Source: a virus. Taken from it: 64,000 nt of DNA. Shown here piece after piece: positions 1,900 through 44,778 of this stretch (position 1 is the first letter of the stretch; every line of letters starts with the position of its first letter). The stretch is taken from positions 38,120 through 102,119 of the IMG/VR virus record IMGVR_UViG_3300032607_001425. One strand, written 5' to 3'. The position numbers and the translations under genes are program-made. The notes below the pieces were generated by a model. That model was not told the DNA's origin. It worked only from the letters and a program-made list of their open reading frames with translations, and did not search any database.

Positions 1900-2001
1900 A
1901 ATAAAAAAAGCTTAGGCTTTCAAGATTGGAGACTCTACTTGCCATAAGCTTTAGTTGATATTTTCTTTAAATATGTAGCTCCAATTCTACGTATATAAAT
2001 A
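1900..2001 (-). ncRNA. Endonuclease leader RNA family A, copy 1 (kissing-loop hairpin pair)
   Basis: Minus strand: short hairpin GTAG/CTAC with loop ATTGGAG; long stem AAAGCTTATGGC...GCCTAAGCTTT with loop CTCCAAT; then a U tract and the ATG. Confidence 0.75.
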
Positions 2002-2027
2002 GCAACTTTTTGTAGAAACCTACCAAA

Positions 2028-2330
2028 CTACTCTGCCTTCCTAATGGTAGCAAGGATTTCTCTGTCTGGTGTAATGAAGTACTCTTGACCTTCAAAGTCA
2101 ATACGAATGGTTCCTATCTTAGGAATCAATACAATGTCTCCTACTTTAGCTTCTACTCTAATAAATTGTCCAAATTCAGACTGGCGTCCTGGACCTACGG
2201 AAACTACTTCACCCATTTCTGGTCTTTCTTTTCCCATGTCTGGAATGATAATACTTCCAAACCTTTCTTCTCCTGACTCTACAGGCTTAACGATAACTCT
2301 ATCGCTGTTTGCTGATAACTGTTGTGACAT
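2028..2330 (-). CDS. groES: Co-chaperonin GroES
   Basis: DRVIVKP...IIIPD..KERPEMGEVVSVGPG...KVGDIV motifs; adjacent to groEL. Confidence 0.95.
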   Translation of the reverse strand: MSQQLSANSDRVIVKPVESGEERFGSIIIPDMGKERPEMGEVVSVGPGRQSEFGQFIRVEAKVGDIVLIPKIGTIRIDFEGQEYFITPDREILATIRKAE

Positions 2331-2394
2331 AAACTGATTTTAATTTAAAACTTATTTCTATTAATATAACAATAAATAGTACGTGAGACAACTT

Positions 2395-4767: not shown

Positions 4768-4794
4768 ATTTCTGCAACTCTTTTTCTATTTATT

Positions 4795-4986
4795 TTACTC
4801 TGGATTGTTCGTTAAATCAGCATCGAGAATGCTGTTATGTAGATCAGACACTATACTATCTAGTGATTCTAACATTTTTACATTACTTGCTGTTTGCATA
4901 GCCTGTAATGCCACTGCTAACGGAACCATCTGCACTCCTTGTACATCCTGTGCACTTGCCTGTAGGTATTGTTCTAACTCTTCCAT
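4795..4986 (-). CDS. Hypothetical protein
   Basis: Small ORF co-oriented with and overlapping the upstream gene. Confidence 0.6.
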   Translation of the reverse strand: MEELEQYLQASAQDVQGVQMVPLAVALQAMQTASNVKMLESLDSIVSDLHNSILDADLTNNPE

Positions 4987-5771: not shown

Positions 5772-5774
5772 TAT

Positions 5775-6530
5775 TTATTTTTTTAATTGTTTATATTCAT
5801 ATATTTGCTTTACCATACTAAAAAAATCCTGTTCTGGCAAATCCATTTTCATTTTATTAATGTGCTTATGAACCCACTGTATATTTCCTAGTACATATCC
5901 CTGCTTTGAGTCTATCCTATCAAGAGAAGCTGTGCTAATCTCCTTTGCTCCAAGAGTTCCTTTACCCTTGTCTGAAAATTCTATCTGCATATTTGATATA
6001 GCACATCGTCTGTTTTGTTGTTCGTACAGCTCATACAAATACTGTGGAGTTACTAGCCATTGCTTCTTTCTTAATCTAGCACCCTGTTCGTAACGTCTTA
6101 TATCTCCCATTGGTATACATCCTACTTTTTCTACTAGATACTTTTGCAATCTACACTTTTCACACTGTGTTGATAAGCCTCTTGTTATGTGAGATGTTCT
6201 AATATGCTTTTCTGTTCCACAGTCGCATCTACAATTGTACTGACGTTCTAGTATATTTCCATTCTTCCTATATAGAAGTGTATAGTCGTTCACGTCTATT
6301 ACAGTCCACTTTCCAAAGCGTTTTCCAGTTACAATTCCTGCTTTTGGCTTTTTTGCATAGCAGGAGGTGCATTGCTTAGTAACTCCTCTTAGTAGGTCTG
6401 TTTGTCGTTGTTGTTTAGTAAATCCACAATCACAGATACAATCAATCTTTTGAGCTGTGTGTGTTTGCGTAACTGTCCAATGCCAGAAGCGATCTCCTGC
6501 TTGCACTTTAATAGTAGAAATATCAGCCAT
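5775..6530 (-). CDS. Putative HNH-type homing endonuclease with repeated CxCxCG domains
   Basis: Two WTV...CxCDCG repeats; C-terminal SLDRIDS..GY..GNIQWVH..IN.MK. Confidence 0.75.
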   Translation of the reverse strand: MADISTIKVQAGDRFWHWTVTQTHTAQKIDCICDCGFTKQQRQTDLLRGVTKQCTSCYAKKPKAGIVTGKRFGKWTVIDVNDYTLLYRKNGNILERQYNCRCDCGTEKHIRTSHITRGLSTQCEKCRLQKYLVEKVGCIPMGDIRRYEQGARLRKKQWLVTPQYLYELYEQQNRRCAISNMQIEFSDKGKGTLGAKEISTASLDRIDSKQGYVLGNIQWVHKHINKMKMDLPEQDFFSMVKQIYEYKQLKK

Positions 6531-6580
6531 AGTTATAGTATTTTATTATAAATATAGCCAATATTCCTAAAGCAAGATTT

Positions 6581-7231: not shown

Positions 7232-7236
7232 ATAAC

Positions 7237-10143: not shown

Positions 10144-10149
10144 TTTTAT

Positions 10150-13694: not shown

Positions 13695-13722
13695 TTATTT
13701 GTTTTTATATAATGTACGAACT

Positions 13723-14373
13723 TTATTTTAAGATTCCAAACTTTTTATTAGATTTTTTTATATTATCTTGAGCCCACAGTGGTTGAAAATTTGTGTAATG
13801 ATTTAGTTTATAAATTTCTTCTAAGGTTTGTGCAGATGAAATTGGGATAATATGATCAAAATGCCACTCACCATGGTTACTTAATGTCATACCTTCCTGA
13901 AATTTGTGCTCGATGTATATTAAAAATTCCTGCATTGAGCATCCTAAAATCTCTTCAGTAAGTTTGCTCTTTTTATAAAGTCCTTTACAAGCTCTACCAA
14001 AAGAACCTCCTACTAATGCCCTTACGCCACATATGGTTTTAAATAAAGGATCTACTTCTCTTCTACGAGTTGCATATTCTTGAGTACGTTTTTTAACATG
14101 CTCTATATTATTTTTATAATATTCAGAATAGCTATTAGGATTTTTTTCTTCCCACTGTTTCATATAGTTAGGATTTTGCTCCATCCATTCCTTTAGGTAA
14201 TTAGGGTTTTCTAAATACCATTTTTGAAGATAATCAGGATTTTTTTCTCTCCAACTAGTATTCCTTATTTTACAACATTCTTTACATTCCCCAAACCTAC
14301 CATCTAGGTTTCTTACATTCTTATAGTAATCTTCTAATAACTTTTCTTGATTACAAGTTATACATTTTTTCAT
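13723..14373 (-). CDS. HNH endonuclease with Zn-finger and NPxY repeats
   Basis: CITC...CKEC, four W.E.NP.Y repeats, WHFDHIIP...NHYTNFQPLWAQDN..K. Confidence 0.85.
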   Translation of the reverse strand: MKKCITCNQEKLLEDYYKNVRNLDGRFGECKECCKIRNTSWREKNPDYLQKWYLENPNYLKEWMEQNPNYMKQWEEKNPNSYSEYYKNNIEHVKKRTQEYATRRREVDPLFKTICGVRALVGGSFGRACKGLYKKSKLTEEILGCSMQEFLIYIEHKFQEGMTLSNHGEWHFDHIIPISSAQTLEEIYKLNHYTNFQPLWAQDNIKKSNKKFGILK

Positions 14374-14477
14374 AATAAAAAAAAGCTTAGGCTTTCGAGG
14401 TCGGACGCTCTACTTGCCATAAGCTTTAAATTGATGTTTTCGATATAAATATAGGTCCGACGCTATGCATATAAATA
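14374..14477 (-). ncRNA. Endonuclease leader RNA family A, copy 2
   Basis: Same scaffold as 1900-2001; loops GTCGGAC and GTCCGAC. Confidence 0.75.
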
Positions 14478-14508
14478 TCGACTTTTTATGAAAAGTACGG
14501 TTTATTTT

Positions 14509-20565: not shown

Positions 20566-20638
20566 AACTTTTATTTGTTTTAAATTTCTAATAATTAAAT
20601 ATACGAAAAAAAGCTTGCCGAAGCAAGCCTTTTGCCAA

Positions 20639-21337
20639 TTATTTTTTAGAATATTTCCAGATAAATCCTCCTGCAGTTTTTACCTTACCTTTTATACAGG
20701 TCGAGATGTTCCCTTTATCTATTCCTAGATCTTCACTGGCTTCTCTTCCTGAAGACCATTCTCTGATGAATCTTCCATCTCTATTGTATTGATTGATAGC
20801 TTTTTTGTTTTTCTCTGCTATTAGCTTATAATCTGTATTTTCTACCTTTATTATAAAGTTGGTATTTTTAATCCTTGCTGCTTCATCTCTACTAGCTGCT
20901 GATTTATTTCTGTTTCCTTTTCCTTCCTCGGTCATATTATAGACCCTTAGAGTCTCTGCTATTTGGGACTTTACCTCAACCCCCTTGGAAGTACTGTAGA
21001 GAAGCTTCTTAGCTGCTTTTATTTTATCCACTGTATTTTGGGAATGTACAGTCTTAGCTTCCTGCGTACTCTGTAACTTACAGTTTAATCCATTTTCAGA
21101 TAGAACATCGTAATATTCTTGCCAGTGTCTCTCACGAATGTTTAGTTCCTCTACCTTACACTGTTCTACTATTTCAAAGATATGCTCAGGGAAACCGTAT
21201 TTTACTAGTGAGGCATAAAGTCTTATCTGATTCTTGCATCCTTTTCTAGCGTAAATTTTCTGCCTTGTTTCCAAGTCAGTACTCTGCCCAATATATACTC
21301 TTCCCGTTGGACTTATAATTTTATAAATTCCTATCAT
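20639..21337 (-). CDS. GIY-YIG homing endonuclease with NUMOD1 C-terminus
   Basis: GIYKI...VYIGQS; C-terminal INQY..DG.FIREW...AGGFIWKY. Confidence 0.9.
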   Translation of the reverse strand: MIGIYKIISPTGRVYIGQSTDLETRQKIYARKGCKNQIRLYASLVKYGFPEHIFEIVEQCKVEELNIRERHWQEYYDVLSENGLNCKLQSTQEAKTVHSQNTVDKIKAAKKLLYSTSKGVEVKSQIAETLRVYNMTEEGKGNRNKSAASRDEAARIKNTNFIIKVENTDYKLIAEKNKKAINQYNRDGRFIREWSSGREASEDLGIDKGNISTCIKGKVKTAGGFIWKYSKK

Positions 21338-21447
21338 ATTAAATAAAAAAAGGAGAAATTAAAAATATAGTACCTGACCGTACTAAATCTTTAAAATCTC
21401 CATATGCTCTTGTAGGTCGGTCAGTACCCTTTATTTAATATAAATAG
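21338..21447 (-). ncRNA. Endonuclease leader RNA family B, copy 1
   Basis: GGAGA...TCTCC-closed stem with apical TAGTAC/GTACTA; complementary CTGACCG/CGGTCAG; U tract before the ATG. Confidence 0.72.
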
Positions 21448-21476
21448 CAACTTTTTATAAAAACCGCTAGTTTTTA

Positions 21477-23264: not shown

Positions 23265-23464
23265 AACCTTATTTGTTTTTAAGTTCTTTTTCTTTTAAAG
23301 TATTCATATATTTTAATTCAATTGCTACTCTATCTATTGCAAAATAAATAAGTAAACCTACAGTTAGTATTGTAAAAATTAATAGTACCATCATAATCTT
23401 ATTTGTTTTTAAATTTATACTTAAATATACGAATAATATCTCAGTCTACCAAATTATTTTTAAT

Positions 23465-24106
23465 TTATTTTACATATTTCCAAATAAATCCTCCTGCCGT
23501 CTTATTACGACCAGTCAGACAATTAGATATACTATTCCTAGATATTCCTAATGATCTCTCAATATCTCCCAGTGAAGGCCAAACTTGTACAACCACGTTG
23601 TCAAGCGTTAGTTGTTTAACTGAAACCATTCGCTTTATTGATCGCTTTTTAATGCTCTCTGGGTTTTGCATGTGATCTGTGGAAGGTTTAAATCCAATTG
23701 CTTTTCTTGTGGCTACAATTTTTGCAGCATGCTCTTTTGTTTTGGGGACATTTTTAAATTGAATAGATACGGCTAAGGCGTGCCTCTCTTTTACCTCCTG
23801 GTACATCCTTGCTGTTACTTTATGCTTAGGTTTGCTTATATCTCCCATTGTTACAAAAAACCACAGTGCCTGTGATAATTTTAGTTCGGTTGGGAAAATC
23901 CTACATAAAAGTAAATGTGCTACAAAATGTTCTCGAGCTGTAAGTAGTACAACATTTGGATGAGTTTTCCACTAACGTTCCAAACCTTCTCCTCCCATAC
24001 ATTTTGGAATAATGTGATGAGCTTCAAAATAAAACTCTCTACTCTTAACTCTGTTTTCACTTTGAGCTCTCTCAATTAGTTGATTGTAAATTCTTTGGTA
24101 ATTCAT
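23465..24106 (-). pseudogene. HNH homing endonuclease interrupted by one in-frame TAG (23972-23974)
   Basis: MNYQRIYNQLIERA...EAHHIIPKCMGGEGLER*WKTHPNVVLLTAREHFVAH continues in frame to AGGFIWKY; paralog of 44009-44674. Confidence 0.85.
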
Positions 24107-24210
24107 AATAAAAAAAGCTATGGCTTTCGAGGTAGGAGACTCTACTTGCCTATAGCTTTAGTTGATATTTTATTTAGTATTTGTAGCTCCTACACTACAT
24201 ATATAAATAG
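24107..24210 (-). ncRNA. Endonuclease leader RNA family A, copy 3
   Basis: Same scaffold; loops GTAGGAG and CTCCTAC. Confidence 0.75.
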
Positions 24211-24237
24211 CAACTTTTTATGGAAAACACCGTTTAT

Positions 24238-27097: not shown

Positions 27098-27171
27098 ATT
27101 TGTGTTTTTAAAATTTATACTTATAATATACAAAAAAAGACTTGAATAAACAAGTCTTTCTGTAATTATTT

Positions 27172-27969
27172 TTAAAAAAATTTCCAAATAAATCCTCCTG
27201 CAGATTTTTTCTTCTCTAAAGCACACTGTGATATGTTACTTCCATCTACTTTTAAAGTGCTACTTGCTAATGATATTGAAGTCCATTTTTTAATAAACTC
27301 CCCCTCTAAAGAGTGTTGAAGTATTATTTTTGTATTGTAACCTCTTTCCCTTCTAGTAGCAGTCCGTTTTTGAAGGGATTCCTTAGAGTGTACTACTCCT
27401 TTTTTAGCTTTAGAGATATTACTTCTGTGTTCCTGGGTTATTGTTTTTCCTTTTTTAGCTTTTGATAGCTTGCTTCTGTGATCTTGAGTATGCTTCTTTC
27501 CTTTATTTGCTTTAGATATCTTAGTTGCATGTTCTTGTGTATGTTTTTTTCCACTATTAGCTTTAGACAATTTATCTTTAGTTTTTTGAGAGACTACTCT
27601 TCCTTTGCTAGATTTGGATATCTTCTCCTTTGTCTCATCTGAGTGTGTGTGGGGTATGCCCTCTGTACTAAAGCCTGTACTAGTTGCTTTACACTTATTA
27701 TAGAAATTGGCATTAACCCCTACATTAAACTTATTGTGTAGTTTAATTTCAAGTAGCATAGCCTCCTCTCTTGTATCAAATACGGAGACTATTTTTAATT
27801 TATAATTCTCAGGGTTATTCTTAAATAATTCTTTAAATTTTAAATTAGTAGAACTAGTAAAGTATTTTACTCCTAAATCATTCTCAGGACTGTCAGTAGA
27901 GCTTCTATACCCATAGTAGTGCTTGTTTTCTTGTATAGAGGTGACTCTGTATACGTAGTAGTATTTCAT
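27172..27969 (-). CDS. GIY-YIG endonuclease with tandem NUMOD3 repeats
   Basis: Start reassigned to MKYYYVY; YYG.R, repeated H(T/S).E...K(I/L)S.A.KG units, AGGFIWK. Confidence 0.88.
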   Translation of the reverse strand: MKYYYVYRVTSIQENKHYYGYRSSTDSPENDLGVKYFTSSTNLKFKELFKNNPENYKLKIVSVFDTREEAMLLEIKLHNKFNVGVNANFYNKCKATSTGFSTEGIPHTHSDETKEKISKSSKGRVVSQKTKDKLSKANSGKKHTQEHATKISKANKGKKHTQDHRSKLSKAKKGKTITQEHRSNISKAKKGVVHSKESLQKRTATRRERGYNTKIILQHSLEGEFIKKWTSISLASSTLKVDGSNISQCALEKKKSAGGFIWKFF

Positions 27970-28081
27970 AATAAATAAAAAAGGAGAAATTAAAATACAC
28001 CACATGCAACATGGTATTATTTTAAAATCTCCGTAATATTTTTATCGAGTAGTTGCATTACCCTTTCTTTATTATAAATAG
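27970..28081 (-). ncRNA. Endonuclease leader RNA family B, copy 2
   Basis: Same scaffold; complementary ATGCAAC/GTTGCAT. Confidence 0.72.
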
Positions 28082-28119
28082 CAACTTTTTATGGAAACAT
28101 GTACCTTTTTAGTAAAAAT

Positions 28120-30430: not shown

Positions 30431-30506
30431 GTGTCCTATACAGGATTCGAACCTGTGACCTTCTCGTTATGAGCGAGCTGCTCTAGCCAACTGAGCTAAA
30501 AGGACA
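30431..30506 (-). tRNA. tRNA-Met or Ile2 (CAT)
   Basis: Cloverleaf; anticodon loop CTCATAA. Confidence 0.85.
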
Positions 30507-30512
30507 TTCTAG

Positions 30513-30582
30513 TTGCGACCGGAAGATTCGAACTTCTCCTCAAGGTTATGAGCCTCGTATGCTACCTTTACACTACGTCGCG
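30513..30582 (-). tRNA. tRNA-fMet-like (CAT)
   Basis: C1:A72 mismatch; loop CTCATAA. Confidence 0.8.
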
Positions 30583-30589
30583 ATGTTAG

Positions 30590-30667
30590 CTGACTAATAA
30601 GGATTTGAACCTTACTCCCCTACCTCCTTTAGATTCAGAGGTGGTGTGCACCATTACACCATAATCA
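30590..30667 (-). tRNA. Atypical Gln-like tRNA with possible CTA (amber) anticodon
   Basis: D arm GGTGTAATGG, T arm GGTTCAAATCC; anticodon arm ACCTC-TGAATCTAAAG-GAGGT with an enlarged loop. Confidence 0.45.
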
Positions 30668-30717
30668 ATCGAGGTTTTCGAACACCTCAGTCATAGGTTA
30701 ATTACTCCTATGGTTTG

Positions 30718-30789
30718 CGGTCTATGAGGGAATCGAACCCTCGCCTCTGACGTGACAAGCCAGTACTGCTACCATTACACAAATAGACC
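30718..30789 (-). tRNA. tRNA-Asp (GTC)
   Basis: Loop TTGTCAC. Confidence 0.88.
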
Positions 30790-30865
30790 AAATTACCTGT
30801 CTGTTCCAGGTTGTCAACTACTTACCAATTAGCCTCATTGGTCAATCCTCTTATAGTCGATTTTG

Positions 30866-30937
30866 TGGAGATATAGGGAATTGAACCCTAATTTATGATT
30901 TGCAAAACCATCGTAATAGCCATTATACGATATCCCC
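30866..30937 (-). tRNA. tRNA-Ala (TGC)
   Basis: Loop TTTGCAA; G3:U70. Confidence 0.88.
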
Positions 30938-30942
30938 AATTG

Positions 30943-31014
30943 TAGCCCTGCTGGGAGTCGAACCCAACTTTTATGGATGAAAACCATATGTCCTAACCGA
31001 TAGACGACAGGGCC
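30943..31014 (-). tRNA. tRNA-Glu (TTC)
   Basis: Loop TTTTCAT. Confidence 0.88.
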
Positions 31015-31020
31015 ATTTTG

Positions 31021-31094
31021 AGCAACATGCCGGTCTCGAACCGGCCTTATTCCACATTGGAAGTGTGGTGCCATACCTACTAGGCGAATGTTGC
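31021..31094 (-). tRNA. tRNA-Gly (TCC)
   Basis: Loop CTTCCAA. Confidence 0.88.
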
Positions 31095-31186
31095 AATTTG
31101 AGGTGGAGTTCCTCAGTGTTGCTAAGTTTACTTTTACTTAGTTATAATTACTAACATAATTCCTTTCTCAAGGGAACAACACTTTG

Positions 31187-31259
31187 AGCTTCCTACCGGT
31201 CACGATCCGATAACCTCTTGTTTACAAAACAAGTGCTCTACCAATTGAGCTAAGGAAGC
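31187..31259 (-). tRNA. tRNA-Thr (TGT)
   Basis: Loop TTTGTAA; T-loop ATCGTGA. Confidence 0.85.
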
Positions 31260-31410
31260 AATTAATTAGAATGGGTGTTCAAATCCCTTCTGCAGGTAGA
31301 ACCTGATGCTTTGCTATAAGCTAATTCTAATATTTTTTGTAGGCGACCAGTACTCCGATCCTTCTGCCCATTTAAGGAACTCATATCCACTTTAAGTGGT
31401 CCTACTATCG

Positions 31411-31486
31411 TACACCTGGTGGGAGTCGAACCCACAAAATCTTCTGATCCTAAGTCAGACGGCTTTACCAGTTTACCCACAGGTGC
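31411..31486 (-). tRNA. tRNA-Leu (TAG), short variable arm
   Basis: Loop CTTAGGA. Confidence 0.83.
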
Positions 31487-31647
31487 AATTTTACCGCATG
31501 TGCGGTCACTTATCAATCGGTAGCTCCCTCTCGATATCCATCTGTGGGTGTAACACATTTGGTAGAGGGTCGACTCTTCAATGCTTTCTTATACTTAAAT
31601 ATACGAACTATATTTGTAATATCCAAGCTTTTTTAATTTATTTTTTG

Positions 31648-31719
31648 AGGGCCTCCAGAGAATCGAACTCTGAATCTCACATTTTGCAGACATGAAGCTT
31701 AACCATCAGCCTGAGGCCC
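31648..31719 (-). tRNA. tRNA-Cys (GCA)
   Basis: Loop CTGCAAA. Confidence 0.8.
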
Positions 31720-31848
31720 ATATTCACCTAGCCTGACCTTCCAGACAGTACAAGTCGAGATTAATTTGGCGCCTCGTTTTGTAGTAGGTGATTTATCTTT
31801 CTTATACTTAAATATACGACCTTTATTTGTAGTATCCAACTTTTTTTA

Positions 31849-32355
31849 CTAGAAAAATAAAAATGTTTCCCATTCTTTTGGAATGTATGTTAACTGTTTT
31901 AGAAGCATCAAATAGTGTGGCCTTTTTGGTTCTACTATCTCTTTACCATATTCCTCAAGTGTTAAATCTGCTTTTTGTGAATTACAAGTTCTACAAGCTG
32001 TTACTAAATTATCCCAAGCATTTTCTCCACCTTTTGATTGTGGAATAACGTGGTCAAGTGTTAGTGACTTTACATAATTTGATCCACAATACACACATTC
32101 ATAGTTGTCTCTTTTATAAACATTTTCTCTTGTTAGAGGAACTTTCTGAATGTTTTGTTTTACATATTTGTAAACCCTAATAATTGAAGGTTTAAAAATT
32201 TCTAGTTTTGGATTTACTAATCCGAATGTTTCTGGATGTTCAGCTATTATTTCTGCATTACCCTTATACGAAATCACGAAAGCTCTTTCTGTGGAGATAA
32301 TGCTTCTTGCCATAAAGCTTGAATCAATTACCAGTGTTCTTTGGTGCTTACTCAT
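31849..32355 (-). CDS. HNH endonuclease (McrA-like) within the tRNA array
   Basis: RENVYKRDNYECVYCG...TLDHVIPQSKGG..WDNLVTACRTCN..K. Confidence 0.92.
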   Translation of the reverse strand: MSKHQRTLVIDSSFMARSIISTERAFVISYKGNAEIIAEHPETFGLVNPKLEIFKPSIIRVYKYVKQNIQKVPLTRENVYKRDNYECVYCGSNYVKSLTLDHVIPQSKGGENAWDNLVTACRTCNSQKADLTLEEYGKEIVEPKRPHYLMLLKQLTYIPKEWETFLFF

Positions 32356-32386
32356 GATTTTAATTTTTAATGAAACAATTTACTAG

Positions 32387-32458
32387 CACGCCTGGAAGGT
32401 TACGATCCCTCGATTTTGGGTTTGGAAGCCAATGTGTTACCAATTACACTACAGACGC
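32387..32458 (-). tRNA. tRNA-Trp (CCA)
   Basis: Loop TTCCAAA; T-loop ATCGTAA. Confidence 0.75.
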
Positions 32459-32556
32459 ATTTGTAGGATATCGTTTAACCTACTGTGAATGGCCTATTCA
32501 CCTTAATACTCTAAAGTTGCATCCTAAACGGGAAACTTTGGTATACGATTTTTTTG

Positions 32557-32628
32557 AACCCCTACCTGGACTCGAACCAGGACCAAAACGTTAGAAGCGT
32601 TTTATTCTTCCGATTAAACTATAAGGGC
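32557..32628 (-). tRNA. tRNA-Arg (TCT)
   Basis: Loop CTTCTAA. Confidence 0.87.
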
Positions 32629-32788
32629 AAGTAAAATATAATTAGTAAGTTTTATCAGGAATCTGGGGTCTGATTTCTCAGTGCTTCACACACCCTTAGA
32701 GAGTTGAGTATAAATACTTGTCCTTAGTGTGTACCCTTGCGTAACGTCTCTCCACGTCTTCTTACCTACGATTTGTAATTATATTTTG

Positions 32789-32860
32789 AGGTCCTACCAG
32801 AACTCGAATCTGGATTCTATCGTTCGTAGCGATAAGTTTTTCCAATTAAACTATAAGACC
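32789..32860 (-). tRNA. tRNA-Arg (ACG)
   Basis: Loop CTACGAA. Confidence 0.85.
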
Positions 32861-32865
32861 ATTTG

Positions 32866-32944
32866 TATCCCTGACTGGAGTCGAACCAGCAAGCCTAGGC
32901 ATTTGGGCTTAAACCAAACGTGTTTACCATTTCACCACAGGGAT
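32866..32944 (-). tRNA. tRNA-Leu (TAA)
   Basis: Loop TTTAAGC; variable arm present. Confidence 0.85.
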
Positions 32945-33040
32945 GTAAAGCCAATCCCGTAGATTGGCAGCTCAACTTACGGTATTGAGTTTGAGGAAAC
33001 AAGTTCCTTACCACGTCCTTTACCCTTTGGGCACCGACAG

Positions 33041-33114
33041 TGTGAAGGGTGGGACTCGAACCCACAATCGCCTGAACCACAATCAGGTGCTTTACCAATT
33101 CAGCTACAATCACC
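33041..33114 (-). tRNA. tRNA-His (GTG)
   Basis: Loop TTGTGGT; G-1 present. Confidence 0.87.
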
Positions 33115-33121
33115 ATGTTAG

Positions 33122-33189
33122 TACCGAATACTAGTAACGATCTAGTCTAAGAGCGGATATGAGCCATTCTCGGTCCCTGACCATTCGAT
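33122..33189 (-). tRNA. Miniature atypical tRNA (CAT) with a 3-nt D loop
   Basis: ATCGAAT-GGTC AGG GACC-GA-GAATGG CTCATAT CCGCTC-TTAG-ACTAG ATCGTTA CTAGT-ATTCGGT. Confidence 0.55.
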
Positions 33190-33194
33190 AATTG

Positions 33195-33279
33195 AGGAAA
33201 GAATGAGAATCGAACTCAATCCGGTTACCCGAACATCTCGCTTAGCAGGCGGACTCAACACCATGTTGACTTACTTTCC
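33195..33279 (-). tRNA. tRNA-Ser (GCT)
   Basis: Loop CTGCTAA; long variable arm. Confidence 0.8.
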
Positions 33280-33285
33280 ATTTTG

Positions 33286-33357
33286 TACTTCTAGGAAGAA
33301 TTGAACTTCCATTTCATCCTTATCAGAGATGTGTGCTAACCATTCTACTATAGAAGC
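33286..33357 (-). tRNA. tRNA-Ile (GAT)
   Basis: Loop CTGATAA. Confidence 0.87.
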
Positions 33358-33364
33358 AGTTTTG

Positions 33365-33436
33365 CTGGCCTGGAAGGAATCGAACCTTCATAAGATGATT
33401 AACAGTCATCCGTAATAGCCGTTATACGACAAGCCA
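33365..33436 (-). tRNA. tRNA-Asn (GTT)
   Basis: Loop CTGTTAA. Confidence 0.88.
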
Positions 33437-33441
33437 ATTTG

Positions 33442-33514
33442 TGGGGATTACAGGTTACGCTCCTGTCTCTCATGGGCTTCAACCATGCGCTTTCACTAGA
33501 TTAGCTTAATCCCC
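33442..33514 (-). tRNA. tRNA-Phe (GAA)
   Basis: Loop TTGAAGC; T-loop AGCGTAA. Confidence 0.8.
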
Positions 33515-33526
33515 AATTTAATAAAG

Positions 33527-33597
33527 TGGGGCCGGTAGGAATCGAACCTACCCAGTGAGCTTTTACAGAGCTGCTCGGCACCTTGCCTGTCGTCCCC
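33527..33597 (-). tRNA. tRNA-Tyr (GTA), short variable arm
   Basis: Loop CTGTAAA. Confidence 0.72.
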
Positions 33598-33602
33598 TTT
33601 TG

Positions 33603-33673
33603 TACCTCGTGATGGTTATGCTCCACCGCCTATTGCATGTAAAACAATTACGCTTCTATTACGCCAACGAGGC
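33603..33673 (-). tRNA. tRNA-Val (TAC)
   Basis: Loop TTTACAT; T-loop AGCATAA. Confidence 0.78.
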
Positions 33674-33732
33674 AAATTTAATTCTATGCTCGCAATATGT
33701 AGCTCTATGAATTAATAACAATCTCATCTGTG

Positions 33733-33803
33733 TACCCCTCTCAGGTAATGATCCTGATTCCCGATATTAAAAGTATCGTGCTTCACCTTAAAGCTTGAAG
33801 GGC
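33733..33803 (-). tRNA. tRNA-Lys (TTT)
   Basis: Loop CTTTTAA; T-loop ATCATTA. Confidence 0.8.
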
Positions 33804-33809
33804 AGTTTG

Positions 33810-33882
33810 TCTAAGTGGGAGGGCTCAAACCTCCGGCCTCATGCTCCCAAAGCATGCCATCTACCAACTGATCTACACCTAG
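33810..33882 (-). tRNA. tRNA-Pro (TGG)
   Basis: Loop TTTGGGA. Confidence 0.87.
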
Positions 33883-33896
33883 AAATCTAATTTTTG

Positions 33897-33968
33897 TTAC
33901 CCCTAATGGAATCGAACCACTACCGCATGGACCAAAACCATGTGTACTAACCGTTATACGAAGGGGCA
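33897..33968 (-). tRNA. tRNA-Gln (TTG)
   Basis: Loop TTTTGGT; U1:A72. Confidence 0.88.
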
Positions 33969-33973
33969 AATTG

Positions 33974-34633
33974 TTACTTTATTTTTCTTCCTAATCTCCA
34001 TCCTTCCGGAATTAGATCTCCTTTGTATATTTTTTTATTTTCAACTTCATCTGTTATCCAACAAGTCCCGTATTGGGAATTATTAATTCCTTTTCCTAAA
34101 TCTCTTTCTTTTCTAGTATTTCTTATTTTTTGAAGAGTTTCAGGTTTATGTTTCTTGCCTTTCCAGGAATAGCATTCTGATATGTTGTTAAATTTCACTC
34201 CTCTTTCTTTTGCCTTTTTCTGACCTTTCCTAATTGCTTTGCAGTATTTTTCTCTAAATTCAGGATCTGTCTGTAAAAGTAGTGCTTTTGCTATATTTGC
34301 TGCTGCTCTTCCCTTTATTTTATTTTCTTCTGTGAAGCCTCCTGAACTTCCTTGTTTTAAATTTAAACAGTTTGAATTTTTTAAATCCTGTTCTGTTATT
34401 AAATTAATCTCAGCTTGAACTAATTCTTCTCTTGATTGAAATTGCTCCAGTATTTCTAAGTTAAAACTGTCTCTACCATACTTATTTAATTCGTAATACA
34501 ATCTTTTACCACTTCCCAAGTAACCGTCATCTATACGGTTAGTTGAATGCATTCCCAGGTAGTACCTGTTGTTTATAAGATTTGTAGTCCTATAGGTGAA
34601 ATGATACCTTTTATTCTCTTTGATGTTAGCCAT
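33974..34633 (-). CDS. SegB-like GIY-YIG endonuclease in the tRNA array
   Basis: FTYRTTNLINNRYYLGMHST...YLGSG...KYG; C-terminal GTCWITD...IPEGWRLGR. Confidence 0.88.
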   Translation of the reverse strand: MANIKENKRYHFTYRTTNLINNRYYLGMHSTNRIDDGYLGSGKRLYYELNKYGRDSFNLEILEQFQSREELVQAEINLITEQDLKNSNCLNLKQGSSGGFTEENKIKGRAAANIAKALLLQTDPEFREKYCKAIRKGQKKAKERGVKFNNISECYSWKGKKHKPETLQKIRNTRKERDLGKGINNSQYGTCWITDEVENKKIYKGDLIPEGWRLGRKIK

Positions 34634-34676
34634 ATCTATTGTTTATTATAAATAGGCTAACTTTTCAAAAAGTCTA

Positions 34677-34763
34677 CAGAAGAAGGCGTGAGACTCGAAC
34701 TCACAACGGTTTAACCCGCTACCACTTTTCAAGAGTGGCTCTTGATCCAGCCAGATCTTCTCC
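34677..34763 (-). tRNA. tRNA-Ser (TGA)
   Basis: Loop CTTGAAA; long variable arm. Confidence 0.8.
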
Positions 34764-37975: not shown

Positions 37976-39685
37976 CTATCCGTCGCATGCACCACAATCG
38001 GTACTAACCCTACTTCCCAAATCCCCATTAATTACCGAATCAGTCCTTAAGTAATACAGTGTTTTTAGTCCCAATTTCCAGGCTGTCTGGTGAACAAGGT
38101 TTATAAACTTAGGACTATCTCCTGGATCGAATGCTAGATTTAGGGACTGTGCTTGGTCTATGTACTTACCTCGAACTGCAGCTTGCTCCACTAGGTTTAG
38201 CATATTAATCTCAGCAAATGTTAAGAAAACTTCTTTATCCTCAAATGGCATAATGTCTTCTGGTAAGTTTGCAATTGATCCTCTATCTTTGAGAATTTGT
38301 TGCCATACTTCTTCTGTATTATGTCCTTTGTCTTCTAAATACTTTTCTAATACTGGATTCTTTCTAATGAAAGTTCCTTTTGAAGAATTAAAAGTATACA
38401 CGTTTGCTGGAATTGGTTCAATACCTGCTGATACTCCACCTGAGATTGTTGAATTAGAAACTGTAGGAGCAATTGCAATTAAATGCGTATTTCTCATTCC
38501 TGTTCCCTTACACCAAACTGGTTCTCCGTATTCCTCTGCTAGTTTTCTTGAAGCTGCTTCAGCTTGTGTTTTAATTTGAGAGAAGATTCTATTTGTCCAA
38601 GAAGTTGATGCAATTGAATTAAATGGTAATCCTTTTGCTTGTAGGAATGAGTGCCATCCTAAAACTCCTAATCCTAATGCTCTTCCTTTTTTAGCAGAAC
38701 GGTGAGATCTAATCATAGAATCTTTTCCGTTTGTCTTAATTAAGAATTCCTCTAATACCCCATCTAGGAAGTATATTGCTGTCTCAACTAAGTCAGTATC
38801 TTTCCACTCTTCGTATCTTGTAATGTTTAGAGAAGATAAACAGCAAACAAATGAATGCTCTTCATCAGTATGTAATGCAATCTCTGAGCAGATATTGGTC
38901 ATTGTTACATCCAAGTTATTCTTAACATATGCAGCAGGATTTGCGTTGTTTACATTGTCTTTAAACATGATATACGGTTCTCCTGTCTCTACTCTTGATT
39001 TGAGAATTTCAACCCATAGTTCCATTGCTTCTGGATCTCTATGCTCCAATCTTTGCATGAATTTATCGTCAATGGAAATACATTGGTGTAAGTTTAAACA
39101 TTGACGGTTTGCATCTCCTTGAGGTCTTCTAATACGTAAAAATTCTTTTATATCAACATGGTTAATATCTAAATTTACAGAAGCTGCTCCTCTACGAACT
39201 GATCCTTGATTTGTAGCAATGATAGTTGAATCAAATATTTTAGCCCAAGGCACAATACCTTCTGACTGTCCTGTCTCTCCATTTCCTATCTTTACTCCTC
39301 TTCCTCTTACTCTTCCAAGTCCAATTCCAACTCCACCTCCTAAAGAAGTAAGTCTCATTAGTTCTGCATTGGTTAATCCTATACCTCTAATTGAATCAGG
39401 AGTATCTATACCAAAACATGAGATTGGCAATCCTTTGTCTGTTCCCGTGTTTGATAGTACTGGTGAGGCTAAATTTAACCAACCTTTCCACATATACTTG
39501 AAAAACTTATTTGCTAGATCAGGACGATCTAATCTTTTGGCTACTGCATCAGCAACTCTTCTATATGCTTTCTTTGGATTCTCATCAGGTAACAAATACC
39601 CGTTTGAAACTGTAGCCAAAGATACCTCATTCATCCATTCCGGATAATCTACGCCTGGTTTCCAGGCACTGTAATCTATATTCAT
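37976..39685 (-). CDS. nrdA: Ribonucleotide reductase class I alpha subunit
   Basis: LASPVLSN, ISCF, TNICSEI, IAPTVS, IDQAQSLN, LKTLYY, C-terminal CGACDG. Confidence 0.96.
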   Translation of the reverse strand: MNIDYSAWKPGVDYPEWMNEVSLATVSNGYLLPDENPKKAYRRVADAVAKRLDRPDLANKFFKYMWKGWLNLASPVLSNTGTDKGLPISCFGIDTPDSIRGIGLTNAELMRLTSLGGGVGIGLGRVRGRGVKIGNGETGQSEGIVPWAKIFDSTIIATNQGSVRRGAASVNLDINHVDIKEFLRIRRPQGDANRQCLNLHQCISIDDKFMQRLEHRDPEAMELWVEILKSRVETGEPYIMFKDNVNNANPAAYVKNNLDVTMTNICSEIALHTDEEHSFVCCLSSLNITRYEEWKDTDLVETAIYFLDGVLEEFLIKTNGKDSMIRSHRSAKKGRALGLGVLGWHSFLQAKGLPFNSIASTSWTNRIFSQIKTQAEAASRKLAEEYGEPVWCKGTGMRNTHLIAIAPTVSNSTISGGVSAGIEPIPANVYTFNSSKGTFIRKNPVLEKYLEDKGHNTEEVWQQILKDRGSIANLPEDIMPFEDKEVFLTFAEINMLNLVEQAAVRGKYIDQAQSLNLAFDPGDSPKFINLVHQTAWKLGLKTLYYLRTDSVINGDLGSRVSTDCGACDG

Positions 39686-40488: not shown

Positions 40489-40544
40489 AGTATTTGTTTA
40501 TAATAAATAGGCAAGAAAAAGATTTTTTTACTATTCGAGCAACA

Positions 40545-41528: not shown

Positions 41529-41582
41529 ATTTAATTTTTTTAATATTGTTTTGTAATTAAGACTGTAAGAATAAATAGCATT

Positions 41583-42935
41583 TTAGAATGGAACTTGATT
41601 CTCCAATGCAAAGAACTTATTGGCCAATTCTTTAAAGTTTCCCGGTGGTTGGTTGGTTAAAATATCCTCAGACATACTTCCAAGGATTTCGATATGGCCA
41701 TTATTTGTATTTACTTTTGCGTCAAACGTCATTCCATCCATACCATACCTATTTTTCATCATATGAAAACGTCCTGTTCCTAATACCTTATCCTCTTTCA
41801 TTCTTGATAAAGATATTGCAATATCGCATACCATCATCTTGTCATAAGACCCTGCTGCCTTATCTCCTTCAATAACTGAATCCTTTGCTCCCATTCTATT
41901 AACTTGAGACGGTGTTAGGATAGGAATTTGAAGTTCCTTAGCCAATCCTTTTGTTGCAATGAATACATCATCGATTTCGTCTTTTCTTTCTGTGAAACGA
42001 GATTTTGAAGGTGCTTTCAAGTAATCGACATAATCAATAATAATCATATCTGGTTTGTGATCCATGTCAATACATTTCTGGATATGTGCTTTGATTGTAT
42101 TTATTGAGGCTCCTTTTGGTGGATATTCTTTTACAATCAACTTTCCTTTAAGTTTACCTACAATTTTCTCCACTTCTGCTCTATGTTTGTTTACTTCTTC
42201 AATTCCATAACCTGTTAGGTAACAGTCAAATCGCTTCCCTACATAATCTTCTCCAAGTTCTAGAGTATAGAAGTTTACATTGTATCCCATTACCACTGCA
42301 TGTGCTGCTGCAGCAACCATTGTCCATGACTTTCCTCCTCCAGGATTACCAAACATGATAATTAAATCACCAGGTCCAAATCCTCCTCCGATTGTTTCAT
42401 TAAGTATTGGCCAAGGTGTTGGAATAGTTGGTCTGTAGTTTTCTCTATAACGACTCTCTACATCCTTATTGTATTCATGACCCATGTTCTTATCCATACC
42501 AGCTCTCATGGCTTTTTCAATTACTCCTCTGATTCCATCAAAGTCTCCTTGATTTAGAAGATCTGCTGAATTTAGTAATGCTGCTTTAAGTTCTTGATTC
42601 TTAGCGAACGTTGTAAACTCTTCTACTACGTATGCTAAATCATCTTGAGTTGCTTCATAACAGTTTCTTAATTCTGCCTTAACTGCTACTTGTAAGATAT
42701 CATTTTCTACTTTTTGTAGTTCAATCTTTAGTGCTTCTAAAGAAATTGTAGTATGATACTTATCGTAATACTTGATTGTAGTTTCTAGAATCCATTTATG
42801 GGCATCTGAATCGAAGTAATCTGGTTGTAATAGCTCTCTTGTGTTAAGTAGAAACTTCTTGTCTGTTAGGAGTGCTCCTAATACTTTTAGTTGAAATCCT
42901 TTCCCGTAGGAGCTGAGTTTTGCTAGTGAGGTCAT
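41583..42935 (-). CDS. DnaB/gp41-like replicative helicase
   Basis: GNPGGGKS Walker A, IIIDYVD, SQVNR, KNRYG. Confidence 0.93.
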   Translation of the reverse strand: MTSLAKLSSYGKGFQLKVLGALLTDKKFLLNTRELLQPDYFDSDAHKWILETTIKYYDKYHTTISLEALKIELQKVENDILQVAVKAELRNCYEATQDDLAYVVEEFTTFAKNQELKAALLNSADLLNQGDFDGIRGVIEKAMRAGMDKNMGHEYNKDVESRYRENYRPTIPTPWPILNETIGGGFGPGDLIIMFGNPGGGKSWTMVAAAAHAVVMGYNVNFYTLELGEDYVGKRFDCYLTGYGIEEVNKHRAEVEKIVGKLKGKLIVKEYPPKGASINTIKAHIQKCIDMDHKPDMIIIDYVDYLKAPSKSRFTERKDEIDDVFIATKGLAKELQIPILTPSQVNRMGAKDSVIEGDKAAGSYDKMMVCDIAISLSRMKEDKVLGTGRFHMMKNRYGMDGMTFDAKVNTNNGHIEILGSMSEDILTNQPPGNFKELANKFFALENQVPF

Positions 42936-42955
42936 GTAACTTGTTTTATTATAAC

Positions 42956-43990
42956 TTATTTTTTATATGTTGAAAGCGGTCTGAATAATTCTAACCATCC
43001 TTCAACGTTTTTGTTTAGAGCTTCAATTTGATCTGACTCTAACATGCTTAAAAAAGTAACAACCTGTAAATTTGGTGTTGGCTCTTTTATCTTCTCTAAT
43101 ATATGAAAAATTTCGTAATCTCCCAAGCGAGGCTCCAATAAATTCATTAAATCGTAGTTAGTTTTTACTTTGTCCCAATCATAAACAATACTTGCAAAAA
43201 TCTTCTTTGGTTTGCTTTCTTGTAACTTTTGTTCACAAATATCATAAATATCTTTTAATAAAACTCCAGGCTTGCTTACTAGTTGTGGAAATTCTTTAAG
43301 AAGTGTTTTAGGACCTAATCCTTTTACACCTGAAAGGTTATCTGAGTTATCACCCAGTAGTGCTTTCATTATTAAATAATTCTCGGGAATCAGCCCTATT
43401 TCTTCTTGGATATCTTTTTTTTGATAGGTTTTTTTCTTAATAGGAGAATAAACTTCTATATTTTCGTCTACTATCTGTAAAAAATCTTTGTCGGAAGACG
43501 TAATTGTTACTTTCTTTCCATTAGCTGCAAACTTCTGTGCTAGATACGAAATTGTATCATCTGCTTCTACTTTATCAATAGAAATTAAAGTAACTGGTAA
43601 GCATTGTAAGTACTCTACCAATCTATGCATTTGCATTGTCATTGAAGCAAACTCATCATCTTTATCATCAAACAATTCCCAATTTGTAATCCTCTTTATG
43701 TTTCTTGTTGCTTTGTATTCTGGATTAATGCTCTTTCTACTTGAGGAAGATGCTTGCCCATCAAATACGCAAATGATTCTAGTTGGATCAATTGTTCTAG
43801 TTAAGAACCCCAAGGACCTTAGAAAACCAACAAGACCCCCTGTGTGGTGGCCTTGTGGATTCATTGACTGTAGCATTGCGAACGACCTTATAAATGTGTT
43901 CATGCTATCAACTATAAGTATGTGATCATTCAATTTCCGATCAGGCTTTTTTTGTATTCCGTTTAGGATTTCACTATAACTCTTTTCCAT
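42956..43990 (-). CDS. 5'-3' exonuclease/flap endonuclease (T4 RNase H-like)
   Basis: VDSMN, VFDG, YKATR, EADD, SSDKDFLQ, GDNSDNLSGVKGLGPKT. Confidence 0.93.
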   Translation of the reverse strand: MEKSYSEILNGIQKKPDRKLNDHILIVDSMNTFIRSFAMLQSMNPQGHHTGGLVGFLRSLGFLTRTIDPTRIICVFDGQASSSSRKSINPEYKATRNIKRITNWELFDDKDDEFASMTMQMHRLVEYLQCLPVTLISIDKVEADDTISYLAQKFAANGKKVTITSSDKDFLQIVDENIEVYSPIKKKTYQKKDIQEEIGLIPENYLIMKALLGDNSDNLSGVKGLGPKTLLKEFPQLVSKPGVLLKDIYDICEQKLQESKPKKIFASIVYDWDKVKTNYDLMNLLEPRLGDYEIFHILEKIKEPTPNLQVVTFLSMLESDQIEALNKNVEGWLELFRPLSTYKK

Positions 43991-44008
43991 TCTTTAATAT
44001 AAGATTAT

Positions 44009-44674
44009 TTATGCGTATTTCCAAATAAATCCTTTGTAATTTAATACTTTTTCTGTCAGGGCTCTTGAAATTCCTGAGATATTTATCCCTAAGGTGTTTG
44101 CCGCTGATGTAGTAGATATGTGGACTTCTAATAGTTGTTCATTGAGGTCAAATCTTAAAATAGCTCTTCTTTTTTTCATCGATAGCTTTTCCTTATGCTC
44201 TTGGCTAAAAGACCTCCCTACATAGCTGTCTCTTTCTTTCCTTGTCTGTATGCCTTTTTGTACAGACTCTTTTGTTCTTTTATAATTTCCCCTATCCCTT
44301 CTCGTAGCTGTCCTCTTTTCTATAGCTATATTACTTGGTGAAATTCCTTTTCTAGCTTTATTGTTTAGTTCTTTCGCTTCTGAGATTACTCTGCTGGATG
44401 GGGTGTATCTTTGTTGGTAGCTTTTTTTTAAAGTGCACATTGCATCAAACGCTTTTGCAAGCCCTTTACTACTTGGATATGCTCTAGCCAATAGCCAATG
44501 AGCTAGAAAATGCTCCCTTGCAGTCAATAAAATTAAGTTTTCTTTTCTATTCGAACCGCCCATACACCTAGGGACTATGTGGTGTCTTTCGTAGTAGGCT
44601 CCGCCTTCTTCTTTAATCCTGTTTTGCTTTTTTGCTCGATCAATTATTTGATCATAAATTCTTTGATAATTCAT
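44009..44674 (-). CDS. HNH homing endonuclease with NUMOD C-terminus
   Basis: YYERHHIVPRCMGGSN..ENLILLTAREHFLAH. Confidence 0.9.
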   Translation of the reverse strand: MNYQRIYDQIIDRAKKQNRIKEEGGAYYERHHIVPRCMGGSNRKENLILLTAREHFLAHWLLARAYPSSKGLAKAFDAMCTLKKSYQQRYTPSSRVISEAKELNNKARKGISPSNIAIEKRTATRRDRGNYKRTKESVQKGIQTRKERDSYVGRSFSQEHKEKLSMKKRRAILRFDLNEQLLEVHISTTSAANTLGINISGISRALTEKVLNYKGFIWKYA

Positions 44675-44778
44675 AATAAAAAAAAGCTTAGGCTTTCGAG
44701 GTCGTAGTCTCTACTTGCCATAAGCTTTAGTTGATATTTTATTTAAGTATGTAGCTACGACTCTACTTATATAAATAG
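44675..44778 (-). ncRNA. Endonuclease leader RNA family A, copy 4
   Basis: Same scaffold; loops GTCGTAG and CTACGAC. Confidence 0.75.

Follow-up and report, generated by a model that had tools for sequence, protein, structure and literature searches.

The 64-kb window analysed here (positions 38,120 to 102,119 of the virus record IMGVR_UViG_3300032607_001425; coordinates below are those of the window) contains four minus-strand copies of one leader element, which we call family A, each standing directly before an endonuclease gene and each comprising a folded RNA of ~95 nt. Comparison of these copies with their homologues shows that the loops of two hairpins, H1 and H2, change together and remain complementary, and family A is a new RNA family, so far limited to uncultured freshwater phages. 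A first-pass annotation had proposed an undescribed cis-regulatory element, and cis regulation is still the most likely reading of the sequence: the leader would be a portable cis-acting attenuator/insulator of a mobile homing-endonuclease cassette, giving a short terminated RNA and low read-through, an interpretation that we hold with about even confidence.

All four copies share one layout. Each starts with AAAAAGT(T/C)G(C/A)TATTTATA, followed after 3 nt by H1, which has 4 bp and an 8-nt loop. An A-rich linker, of 22-23 nt in the window copies and kept at ~20-24 nt across homologues, leads to H2, whose elements are, in order, 8 bp, a one-base bulge, GGC/GCC, an AAGUA/GAAA internal loop, GAG/CU(C/U) and a second 8-nt loop. 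In both loops one unpaired base precedes a 7-mer, and the two 7-mers are complementary. A run of U7-8 begins within the H2 stem and is followed by AUU and then by the ATG; the AUG lies 3-5 nt past the U run throughout, at a fixed distance from the base of H2. Four occurrences of the 29-nt core GGCAAGTAGAG-N8-CTYGAAAGCC were counted in the window, where shuffles predict 0.00. The four copies are located exactly where the first-pass annotation had placed them, and all eight of its loop heptamers are exact. The features of each cassette are as follows.

Copy A4:
44770-44787, minus strand: late promoter (AAAAAGTTGCTATTTATA), from a motif scan
44751-44766, minus strand: H1, stem GTAG/CTAC covarying across homologues, 8-nt loop with GTCGTAG (44755-44761)
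44729-44750, minus strand: A-rich single-stranded linker of 22 nt with the conserved AAAAUAUCAAC motif, from the alignment
44683-44728, minus strand: H2, 8-bp basal stem, internal loop 44712-44716 / 44694-44697, 8-nt loop with CTACGAC (44701-44707)
44675-44685, minus strand: U8 and AUU, abutting the ATG (44672-44674)
44009-44674, minus strand: HNH-like homing endonuclease gene, 221 aa (weak Pfam HNH match, E 0.0038)
43995-44024, minus strand: host-type restart promoter TTG-N20-TATATTA at the 3' end of the cassette, from a motif scan

Copy A3:
24202-24219, minus strand: late promoter
24183-24198, minus strand: H1, loop with GTAGGAG (24187-24193)
24114-24159, minus strand: H2, basal stem AAAGCTAT/ATAGCTTT covarying with the other copies, loop with CTCCTAC (24132-24138)
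24107-24116, minus strand: U7 and AUU before the ATG (24104-24106)
23465-24106, minus strand: HNH-like endonuclease gene, full length in one frame (tblastn against the A4 protein, E 2e-38)
23423-23452, minus strand: host-type restart promoter, from a motif scan

Copy A2:
14470-14487, minus strand: late promoter, variant AAAAAGTCGATATTTATA
14451-14466, minus strand: H1, ATAG/CTAT, loop with GTCGGAC (14455-14461)
14382-14427, minus strand: H2, loop with GTCCGAC (14400-14406)
14374-14384, minus strand: U8 and AUU before the ATG (14371-14373)
13723-14373, minus strand: endonuclease-VII-like (HNH superfamily) gene, 216 aa (phrog_1035, E 2.7e-22)
13709-13738, minus strand: weaker restart-promoter-like site, TTG-N19-TACATTAT, recognised by eye and missed by the strict scan

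Copy A1:
1994-2011, minus strand: late promoter
1975-1990, minus strand: H1, loop with ATTGGAG (1979-1985)
1907-1952, minus strand: H2, apical stem GAG/CUU with a G-U pair, loop with CTCCAAT (1925-1931)
1900-1909, minus strand: U7 and AUU before the ATG (1897-1899)
1264-1899, minus strand: GIY-YIG homing endonuclease gene, 211 aa (PF01541, 23.7 bits, above cut-off)
1234-1263, minus strand: host-type restart promoter, from a motif scan

Where one GIY-YIG and three HNH genes had been counted at first, the GIY-YIG gene stands and the other three are better described as two paralogous HNH-like genes and one endonuclease-VII/HNH-superfamily gene; the A2 nuclease gave no Pfam match. The A4 nuclease ends in GFIWKY, a C-terminus common to other endonuclease genes. 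The A3 gene is interrupted by one in-frame TAG at codon 45 (23972-23974), which would be a nonsense mutation of recent origin or else a site of read-through; the 21 tRNAs of the window include no suppressor.

Most homologues were gathered by an exact loop-E/apical-stem pattern in scans of IMG/VR and JGI metagenomes, which returned 22 and then ~30 further copies, and a looser pattern together with covariance model R1 brought in four divergent lineages. Alignment A2 (not to be confused with leader copy A2) holds 40 unique sequences and required an upstream loop complement for entry; the evidence independent of this filter is that of the unfiltered pattern set and of the lineages found by the looser pattern and the model. 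The 7-nt complementarity is perfect in all ~45 unique members, which carry 17 different 7-mer pairs. In the unfiltered set, the AT-rich members with the layout of hairpin, U run and ATG all have 0 mismatches between the 7-mers, and the GC-rich chance matches to the core have 1-3 mismatches at their best upstream site. The complementarity of the loops is far beyond chance.

The divergent lineages L104, L105, L115 and L102 likewise have 0 loop mismatches, and their stems differ: the L104 type has the 7-mer GTTACGG and, below the loop-E motif, stems of CCUUAG-CGU / GCG-UUAAGG; L105 has the H1 stem AGTG/CACT and the 7-mer GTGGTGG; L115 has the basal stem ACCUAU/GUAGGU; and L102 combines an apical stem GGG/CCC and a middle stem GGU/ACC with the 7-mer GTAACGG. 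In alignment A2 the kissing helix is 99.3% paired and all seven of its pairs change on both sides, with no one-sided (G-U) state among ~280 cells; the only two unpaired cells probably belong to L001, shifted by one column by MAFFT. Both-sided changes affect 3 of 5 pairs in H1 (whose variants include GTAG/CTAC, ATAG/CTAT, GCAG/CTGC, AGTG/CACT and GCAAT/ATTGC) and 5 of 11 in the H2 basal stem. For all 26 pairs of the structure taken jointly, the observed covariation was reached by none of 500 shuffles, and sliding the 3' partner by 1-3 columns lowers the pairing to 28-45%. The selected loop-loop pseudoknot suspected from four copies is borne out by the 17 matched pairs and by the both-sided changes in 7/7, and the outcome that would have refuted it, a larger alignment lacking covariation, did not materialise in 40 unique sequences.

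As in other kissing loops, Watson-Crick complementarity between the loops is maintained through compensatory change, and the comparative evidence shows that the 8-nt loops of H1 and H2 would form a 7-bp intramolecular kissing helix. The leaders including H2 fold at about -17 to -21 kcal/mol. Their nested-fold z-scores, between -0.9 and -2.3 for the four copies, are modest, and the case for the structure stands on covariation, not on folding energy. As a reading of aligned sequences, the proposed structure has all the support that comparative analysis can give. The stems of A1 (GAG/CUU), L006, L076, L082 and L104 contain G-U pairs; these would be C-A mismatches on the other strand, and therefore the coding strand is the one that pairs. 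Together with the promoter before it and the U run after it, this indicates that the element is an RNA.

The AAGUA/GAAA internal loop is invariant in alignment A2. In L102, L104 and L105, AGUA/GAA stays fixed while the flanking stems covary, L102 having been found by the model and not by the pattern. This behaviour agrees with the first assignment of AGUA/GAA to the loop-E / sarcin-ricin (bulged-G) type, as which the internal loop would presumably fold. The kissing sites differ at 0.350 per site, the linker at 0.363 and the stems at 0.098, and one leader pair differs at 5 of 7 kissing pairs yet at 0 of 23 linker columns. Since the kissing sites diverge like the linker though each change needs two substitutions, there is a hint of selection for change, or of a role for loop identity, at these sites.

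As a possible antiterminator, of the kind that a regulated attenuator would need, folding yields a weak alternative made of a helix between the 5' region and loop 2 plus a 5-bp mini-hairpin, and its extra pairs are unconserved in L001 and L082. Other pairings and cores were considered for the same RNA and set aside. An extension of H1 by promoter-region RNA and linker on read-through transcripts has a mean z of -1.3, with 28% at p<0.05, and promoter variants are uncompensated in the linker; a closing helix that would join the promoter region to the start region is absent from family A. Pairing of the H1 3' arm CUAC with the GUAG of the loop-E strand is unconserved in L001, L082 and L105 and was treated as coincidental. 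A minimal AUG-UAG open reading frame in H1 is also unconserved (ACG, AAG and AUA variants occur), and a hammerhead core was discarded, the internal loop being AAGUA/GAAA in a two-way loop.

The leader is flanked by two kinds of promoter, both evident from motif counts. The motif (C/A)TATTTATA, with core CTATTTATA, occurs 29 times on the coding (minus) strand of the window versus twice on the other, and the tail tube, baseplate-hub and further genes have it 10-30 nt upstream of their ATG, mostly in the form CTATTTATAATAAA. The phage uses CTATTTATA as its general late promoter, the label "late" being suggested by the class of genes and by analogy with T4 TATAAATA; the motif that had been drawn as the first part of the leader does precede every copy but is not private to it. 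The second kind is a host-type promoter, TTG-N19/20-(C)GTATATT(T/A), with 22 minus-strand sites against 0.9 expected, which we take to resemble the Bacteroidota TTG...TAnnTTTG promoter. It often stands directly 3' of a compact GC-rich terminator (examples of sites are 1234-1263, 20597-20626, 23423-23452, 27124-27153, 43995-44024, 46748-46777 and 49768-49797), and as a restart promoter it lies within 50 nt past 7 of the 8 endonuclease genes that have a leader of family A or of family B, a sister element described below. In several cassettes the TTG of the restart promoter falls in the conserved GFIWKY codons of the C-terminus.

The divergent lineages L001, L082, L104 and L105 retain H2 with U7-8 directly behind it, despite their differing stems. 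This arrangement has the sequence form of a terminator, a stable hairpin with a U run immediately after, and the other terminators of the genome show the same hairpin-plus-T7 form.

The replication-gene block of the window is 83% identical to that of Flavobacterium phage vB_FspM_immuto (hereafter immuto), a 160-kb myovirus. The recombinase and 5'-3' exonuclease genes of immuto share an 8-nt overlap, with no A4 cassette between them; in the window, promoter, leader, nuclease gene and restart promoter all sit between these two genes. The A4 cassette is also missing from related metagenome contigs of two other studies. Such presence/absence polymorphism at a fixed site between conserved genes shows that the cassette is mobile, as homing cassettes are, and judging from these comparisons it is, from leader through restart promoter, one insertion. 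In complete genomes of 160-175 kb, the leader copy number ranges from 0 to 4. The leader precedes GIY-YIG, HNH-like, endonuclease-VII-like, NUMOD4-HNH and DUF723/PD-(D/E)XK-like nucleases, and identical loop types are found ahead of different nuclease types; with at least five nuclease types behind the same leader, its early description as modular with respect to the nuclease was correct. Because the gene that follows the distant member L105 is replication-initiation-like, nucleases are not the module's only partners.

Taken as an attenuator/insulator, the leader would work as follows. The kiss would lock the weak apex of H2 (3 bp and an 8-nt loop), and H1, the loop-loop helix and H2 would stack into one compact rod spanned by the ~22-nt linker. 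H2 and the U tract would then stop most transcripts, whether from upstream read-through or from the late promoter, just before the AUG, leaving a short stable RNA; a small read-through fraction would be translated and the nuclease thereby kept low. At the other end, the 3' restart promoter would spare the next essential gene from polarity. The kissing sequence would be free to vary provided that both loops match. The attenuator part of this reading is supported by the conservation of hairpin and U7-8 across lineages with different stems, and the insulated-cassette part by the restart promoters that follow 7/8 leader-bearing genes.

Several points weigh against it. The -10 element is just 3 nt from H1, and late transcripts may lose the H1 5' arm. 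Termination by H2 and the U tract is predicted from sequence alone, and the basal stem is AU-rich; a simple terminator scan, which permits no internal loops, did not flag the leaders, and the U tract is degenerate in a few members (L083, L115, L021). A plain GC-rich hairpin would suffice for termination, which leaves the loop-E motif, the linker motif and the kiss without explanation, and kissing sites that diverge as fast as the linker hint at something that a purely structural role does not predict. The conservation of the core is, moreover, partly built in by the pattern-based collection.

Sister elements bear on the matter. Family B is represented by four leaders in the window:

21338-21455, minus strand: family B leader
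27967-28089, minus strand: family B leader
47543-47663, minus strand: family B leader
50499-50609, minus strand: family B leader

Its 38 unique homologues carry 11 different matched 7-mers. Like family A, it consists of a late promoter, a 5' hairpin that would kiss a long terminator-like hairpin (its loop of 7 nt being complementary to the apex loop of the latter), U7 and the ATG of an endonuclease gene, and it has a similar linker motif, AAAA(C/U)AU(C/U)A; unlike family A, it is unrelated in sequence and has no loop-E motif. Family B alone has a 12-17-bp helix that joins the segment just past the -10 element to the U tract and AUG, with fold z-scores of -4.5 and -5.7, a duplex mean z of -2.75 (71% at p<0.05) and some U-A / U-G / C-G series. 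This helix is a predicted T4-type start-codon sequestration, in which only read-through transcripts could hide the start codon. At 46808-47539, metagenome contigs of relatives with ~95% identity keep the family B leader, and their endonuclease gene is a 15-codon remnant in which the MNYQ start is joined to the GFIWKY end; the same relatives have no A4 cassette at all.

Two further elements have a related design:

61650-61700, minus strand: hairpin of 12 bp with the late promoter CTATTTATA in its 5' arm, then U6 and ATG (z -4.4)
G000:C1, about 1990-2176, minus strand: third element, with late promoter and an 8-nt-loop hairpin AGUGACAU complementary to the downstream AUGUCACU

The former stands before the endonuclease gene 61028-61654; here, read-through transcripts would terminate, and late transcripts would be without the 5' arm. 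From families A and B and this gene, it appears that the phage repeatedly pairs a hairpin and U run with a late promoter before an endonuclease start. The third element, 36 kb before the window, ends in a GC-rich terminator, and no endonuclease gene follows it directly.

Families A and B and the third element might together constitute a new class of phage RNA switch, in which the variable matched 7-mers serve as an orthogonal address. Under this tentative proposal, which we think possible but doubtful, the terminator would be conditional on the promoter of the transcript, or the terminated RNA would control its own cassette in trans, and each selfish nuclease gene would have a private control channel.

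The control of homing-endonuclease genes in the T4 family provides the closest parallel. There, control of the endonuclease genes involves late promoters and RNA hairpins, together with terminators situated at the gene or within it and restart promoters farther downstream (PMC2988022). The T4-family genes (I-TevI/II/III, segB, mobE, seg43(25)) resemble the family A cassettes in being free-standing nuclease cassettes in early/middle operons, with their own late promoter, a hairpin by the start codon, intrinsic terminators and 3'-end restart promoters (PMC2988022). They differ in that a single T4 hairpin sequesters the Shine-Dalgarno site and holds the late promoter inside it; the family A promoter lies upstream of the whole structure, in a host type without a Shine-Dalgarno site, and family A, which has no sequence or Rfam relationship to T4, consists of two kissing hairpins, contains a loop-E motif and ends in a putative terminator. 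A promoter inside a start-sequestering structure is a feature of family B and not of family A.

This parallel also underlies an alternative in which H2 is a conditional terminator bypassed by the late promoter: only read-through transcripts from early or middle promoters upstream would carry the full H1, and in them the kiss would nucleate the weak H2 apex and make termination before the AUG efficient; late transcripts, starting inside H1, could not kiss, would terminate poorly and would express the nuclease late. The spacing from TATTTATA to H1 is a constant 3 nt in the main family, and a start 5-7 nt past a -10-type element would come to lie within H1, either in its 5' arm or in its loop. 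The H2 apex, with 3 bp and an 8-nt loop, is unlike the compact GC-rich terminators of the genome, the sister elements use a promoter-embedded bypass (the hairpin at 61650-61690 and the family B helix), and T4 supplies a precedent (PMC2988022). However, if the -10 hexamer is TATTTA, the start would be the first G of H1 and H1 would be whole; the family B H1 lies 6-11 nt farther from the promoter and would be retained in late transcripts, so that the two families would differ; and the basal 11 bp of H2 could still fold without the apex. Furthermore, pairing of the promoter region with the start region in family A has a mean z of 0.11, with 0 of 24 at p<0.05, and promoter-linker pairing does no better than the mean z of -1.3 given above. 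We therefore regard a conditional terminator as rather unlikely.

A post-transcriptional role is distinctly unlikely. The compact kissing structure with its 5' hairpin would here shield the full-length mRNA from 5'-end-dependent decay, the hairpin would set a low level of initiation independent of a Shine-Dalgarno site, and termination would play a minor part. The fixed distance of the AUG from the base of H2, with the hairpin 10-11 nt upstream and a U-rich spacer between, fits such a role, as does the difference from ordinary late genes, which have short A-rich leaders; to our knowledge, the host group is one without Shine-Dalgarno-led initiation. A parallel is offered by an Aeromonas phage endonuclease gene whose ribosome binding site has a stable hairpin immediately before it (PMC2988022). 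Nevertheless, a hairpin with 7-8 U directly behind it specifically marks an intrinsic terminator and is conserved across lineages, and restart promoters at cassette ends make sense chiefly if transcription stops within the cassette.

The ~90-nt terminated RNA could instead be a functional small RNA, acting in trans on its own cassette, with the loop 7-mers as a copy-specific address like that of plasmid incompatibility RNAs, or binding and restraining the nuclease like an antitoxin, and promoter, structured RNA and terminator do amount to a complete small-RNA gene. The third element has kiss and terminator with no endonuclease gene directly behind, and the family B leader at 47543-47663 is kept where the endonuclease is a 15-codon remnant. 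Evolution of the kissing sites at the rate of the linker, with the leader pair that differs at 5/7 kissing and 0/23 linker positions, points in the same direction, and co-resident copies always carry different loops. Yet the probability of such distinctness under random assortment is 0.39 for family A and 0.23 for family B, and avoidance of identical loops within a genome is thus not significant in either family; the suggestion in the first-pass annotation that copy-specific loops keep paralogs from cross-pairing is neither supported nor contradicted by this. Being complementary within one molecule, the loops would pair in cis during transcription and leave nothing for trans; nucleases of unrelated folds make a common RNA-protein inhibitor unlikely; and the leader comes and goes with the endonuclease cassette. 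The small-RNA reading is, on these grounds, very unlikely.

The likeness to type III toxin-antitoxin loci (ToxIN) noted in the first-pass annotation is real as far as the order of parts goes: both have a promoter, a pseudoknotted RNA, a terminator and a potentially harmful nuclease gene, and in type III systems the terminator sets the RNA:protein ratio, as it might here. As a claim of membership it fails, and the features that define type III are missing. Family A has no tandem RNA repeats, there being a single leader per gene; its genes are DNA homing endonucleases of several folds, not RNases of the ToxN/AbiQ/CptN type, of which ToxN-type enzymes process the RNA; and the gene behind one copy is of replication type, not a nuclease.

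Finally, a DNA-level or catalytic element (an inverted repeat that serves in recombination or binds protein, a self-cleaving ribozyme or a ligand-sensing riboswitch) is extremely improbable: although loop-E motifs and loop-loop contacts are known from the hairpin, Varkud satellite and hammerhead ribozymes and from the purine and lysine riboswitches, and the kissing helix is without G-U in ~280 cells, the stem G-U pairs fit a single strand, no Rfam match was obtained even at E up to 10, family A has neither a closing P1 helix nor the three-way junction in which P1 closes two kissing hairpins in purine riboswitches, and a protein-bound inverted repeat would not tolerate 17 sequences.

Beyond T4, the attenuator/insulator that we favour can be placed among known kissing complexes and phage terminator modules. 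In ColE1 RNA I/RNA II, HIV-1 DIS, TAR/TAR* and the L2-L3 contact of purine and lysine riboswitches, as in family A, loops of 7-8 nt are almost fully paired; a single unpaired base on the 5' side of each loop is likewise found in canonical kissing complexes, and in natural ones the sequence is free if the loops match. A loop-E motif and a loop-loop contact also occur together in the lysine riboswitch. Unlike these, the family A kiss is intramolecular, joining a 5' hairpin to the loop of a terminator hairpin, and shows no evident ligand or antisense partner. The PR'-tR' module of lambda, with its 6S RNA, runs from a late promoter straight into a short structured RNA and then a terminator, all placed before the genes that it serves, an arrangement that family A shares, and the put RNAs of HK022 are two-hairpin nascent RNAs acting on the polymerase; in family A, unlike in both, the terminator hairpin is itself part of the conserved structure, and no Q-like or put-like feature was seen, none having been looked for.

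The searches for relatives agree that the RNA was undescribed, as had been suspected, since no Rfam 15 family matched. At the gathering score, Rfam 15 returned tRNAs only across the window, and the A4 leader searched against Rfam with E up to 10 gave at best 15.7 bits, against gathering scores of 40-78. The leader occurs in 0 of 50,697 deposited phage genomes, and phage immuto has neither family A nor family B; representative bacterial and archaeal genomes gave chance matches only, in GC-rich Acidobacteria coding sequence. A 2023 catalogue of 10,006 candidate RNAs from IMG/VR may include family A without a name (PMC10690425).

Homing endonuclease genes must stay near-silent to persist in a phage genome. 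In T4-like coliphages the known solutions involve Shine-Dalgarno sequestration, and family A would be a different, portable solution for hosts that do without it: a terminator leader locked by a kissing loop, placed between late and restart promoters and serving at least five nuclease families. Its function thus looks like a new variant on the known theme of tightly controlled homing-endonuclease cassettes. With 17 matched 7-mers, it is among the cleanest natural cases of covariation for an intramolecular kissing loop, would make a sound new Rfam family and provides RNA engineering with a natural set of orthogonal kissing pairs. Kissing sites that change at the rate of the linker also raise the question of whether the pairing sequence itself is selected to differ.

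The carrier is an uncultured freshwater Flavobacterium-type myophage. Its source assembly is a 102-kb virus record from freshwater metagenomes; every gene of the window is on the minus strand, the GC content is ~35%, and tail sheath, tail tube and baseplate genes are also encoded. A further feature of the window is its tRNA genes:

30431-34761, minus strand: 21 tRNA genes in an array that also encloses an HNH endonuclease gene

Within this array, an odd tRNA-Phe(AAA) of 79 nt is called at 30589-30667.

Counting those with and without an A or B leader, the window has at least 12 endonuclease genes. At least four have neither leader (5775-6530, 31849-32355, 33974-34633 and 61028-61654), and all of these but 31849-32355 have a late promoter and a short leader. 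A C-terminal module ending in GFIWKY, similar to the NUMOD of I-HmuI, is common to GIY-YIG and HNH-like endonucleases of the window (genes 1264-1899, 20639-21337, 23465-24106, 44009-44674, 46772-47542 and 49782-50498), and because both nuclease types have it, nuclease domains seem to have been swapped onto a common DNA-binding tail. The codons of this same tail supply the TTG of the restart promoter.

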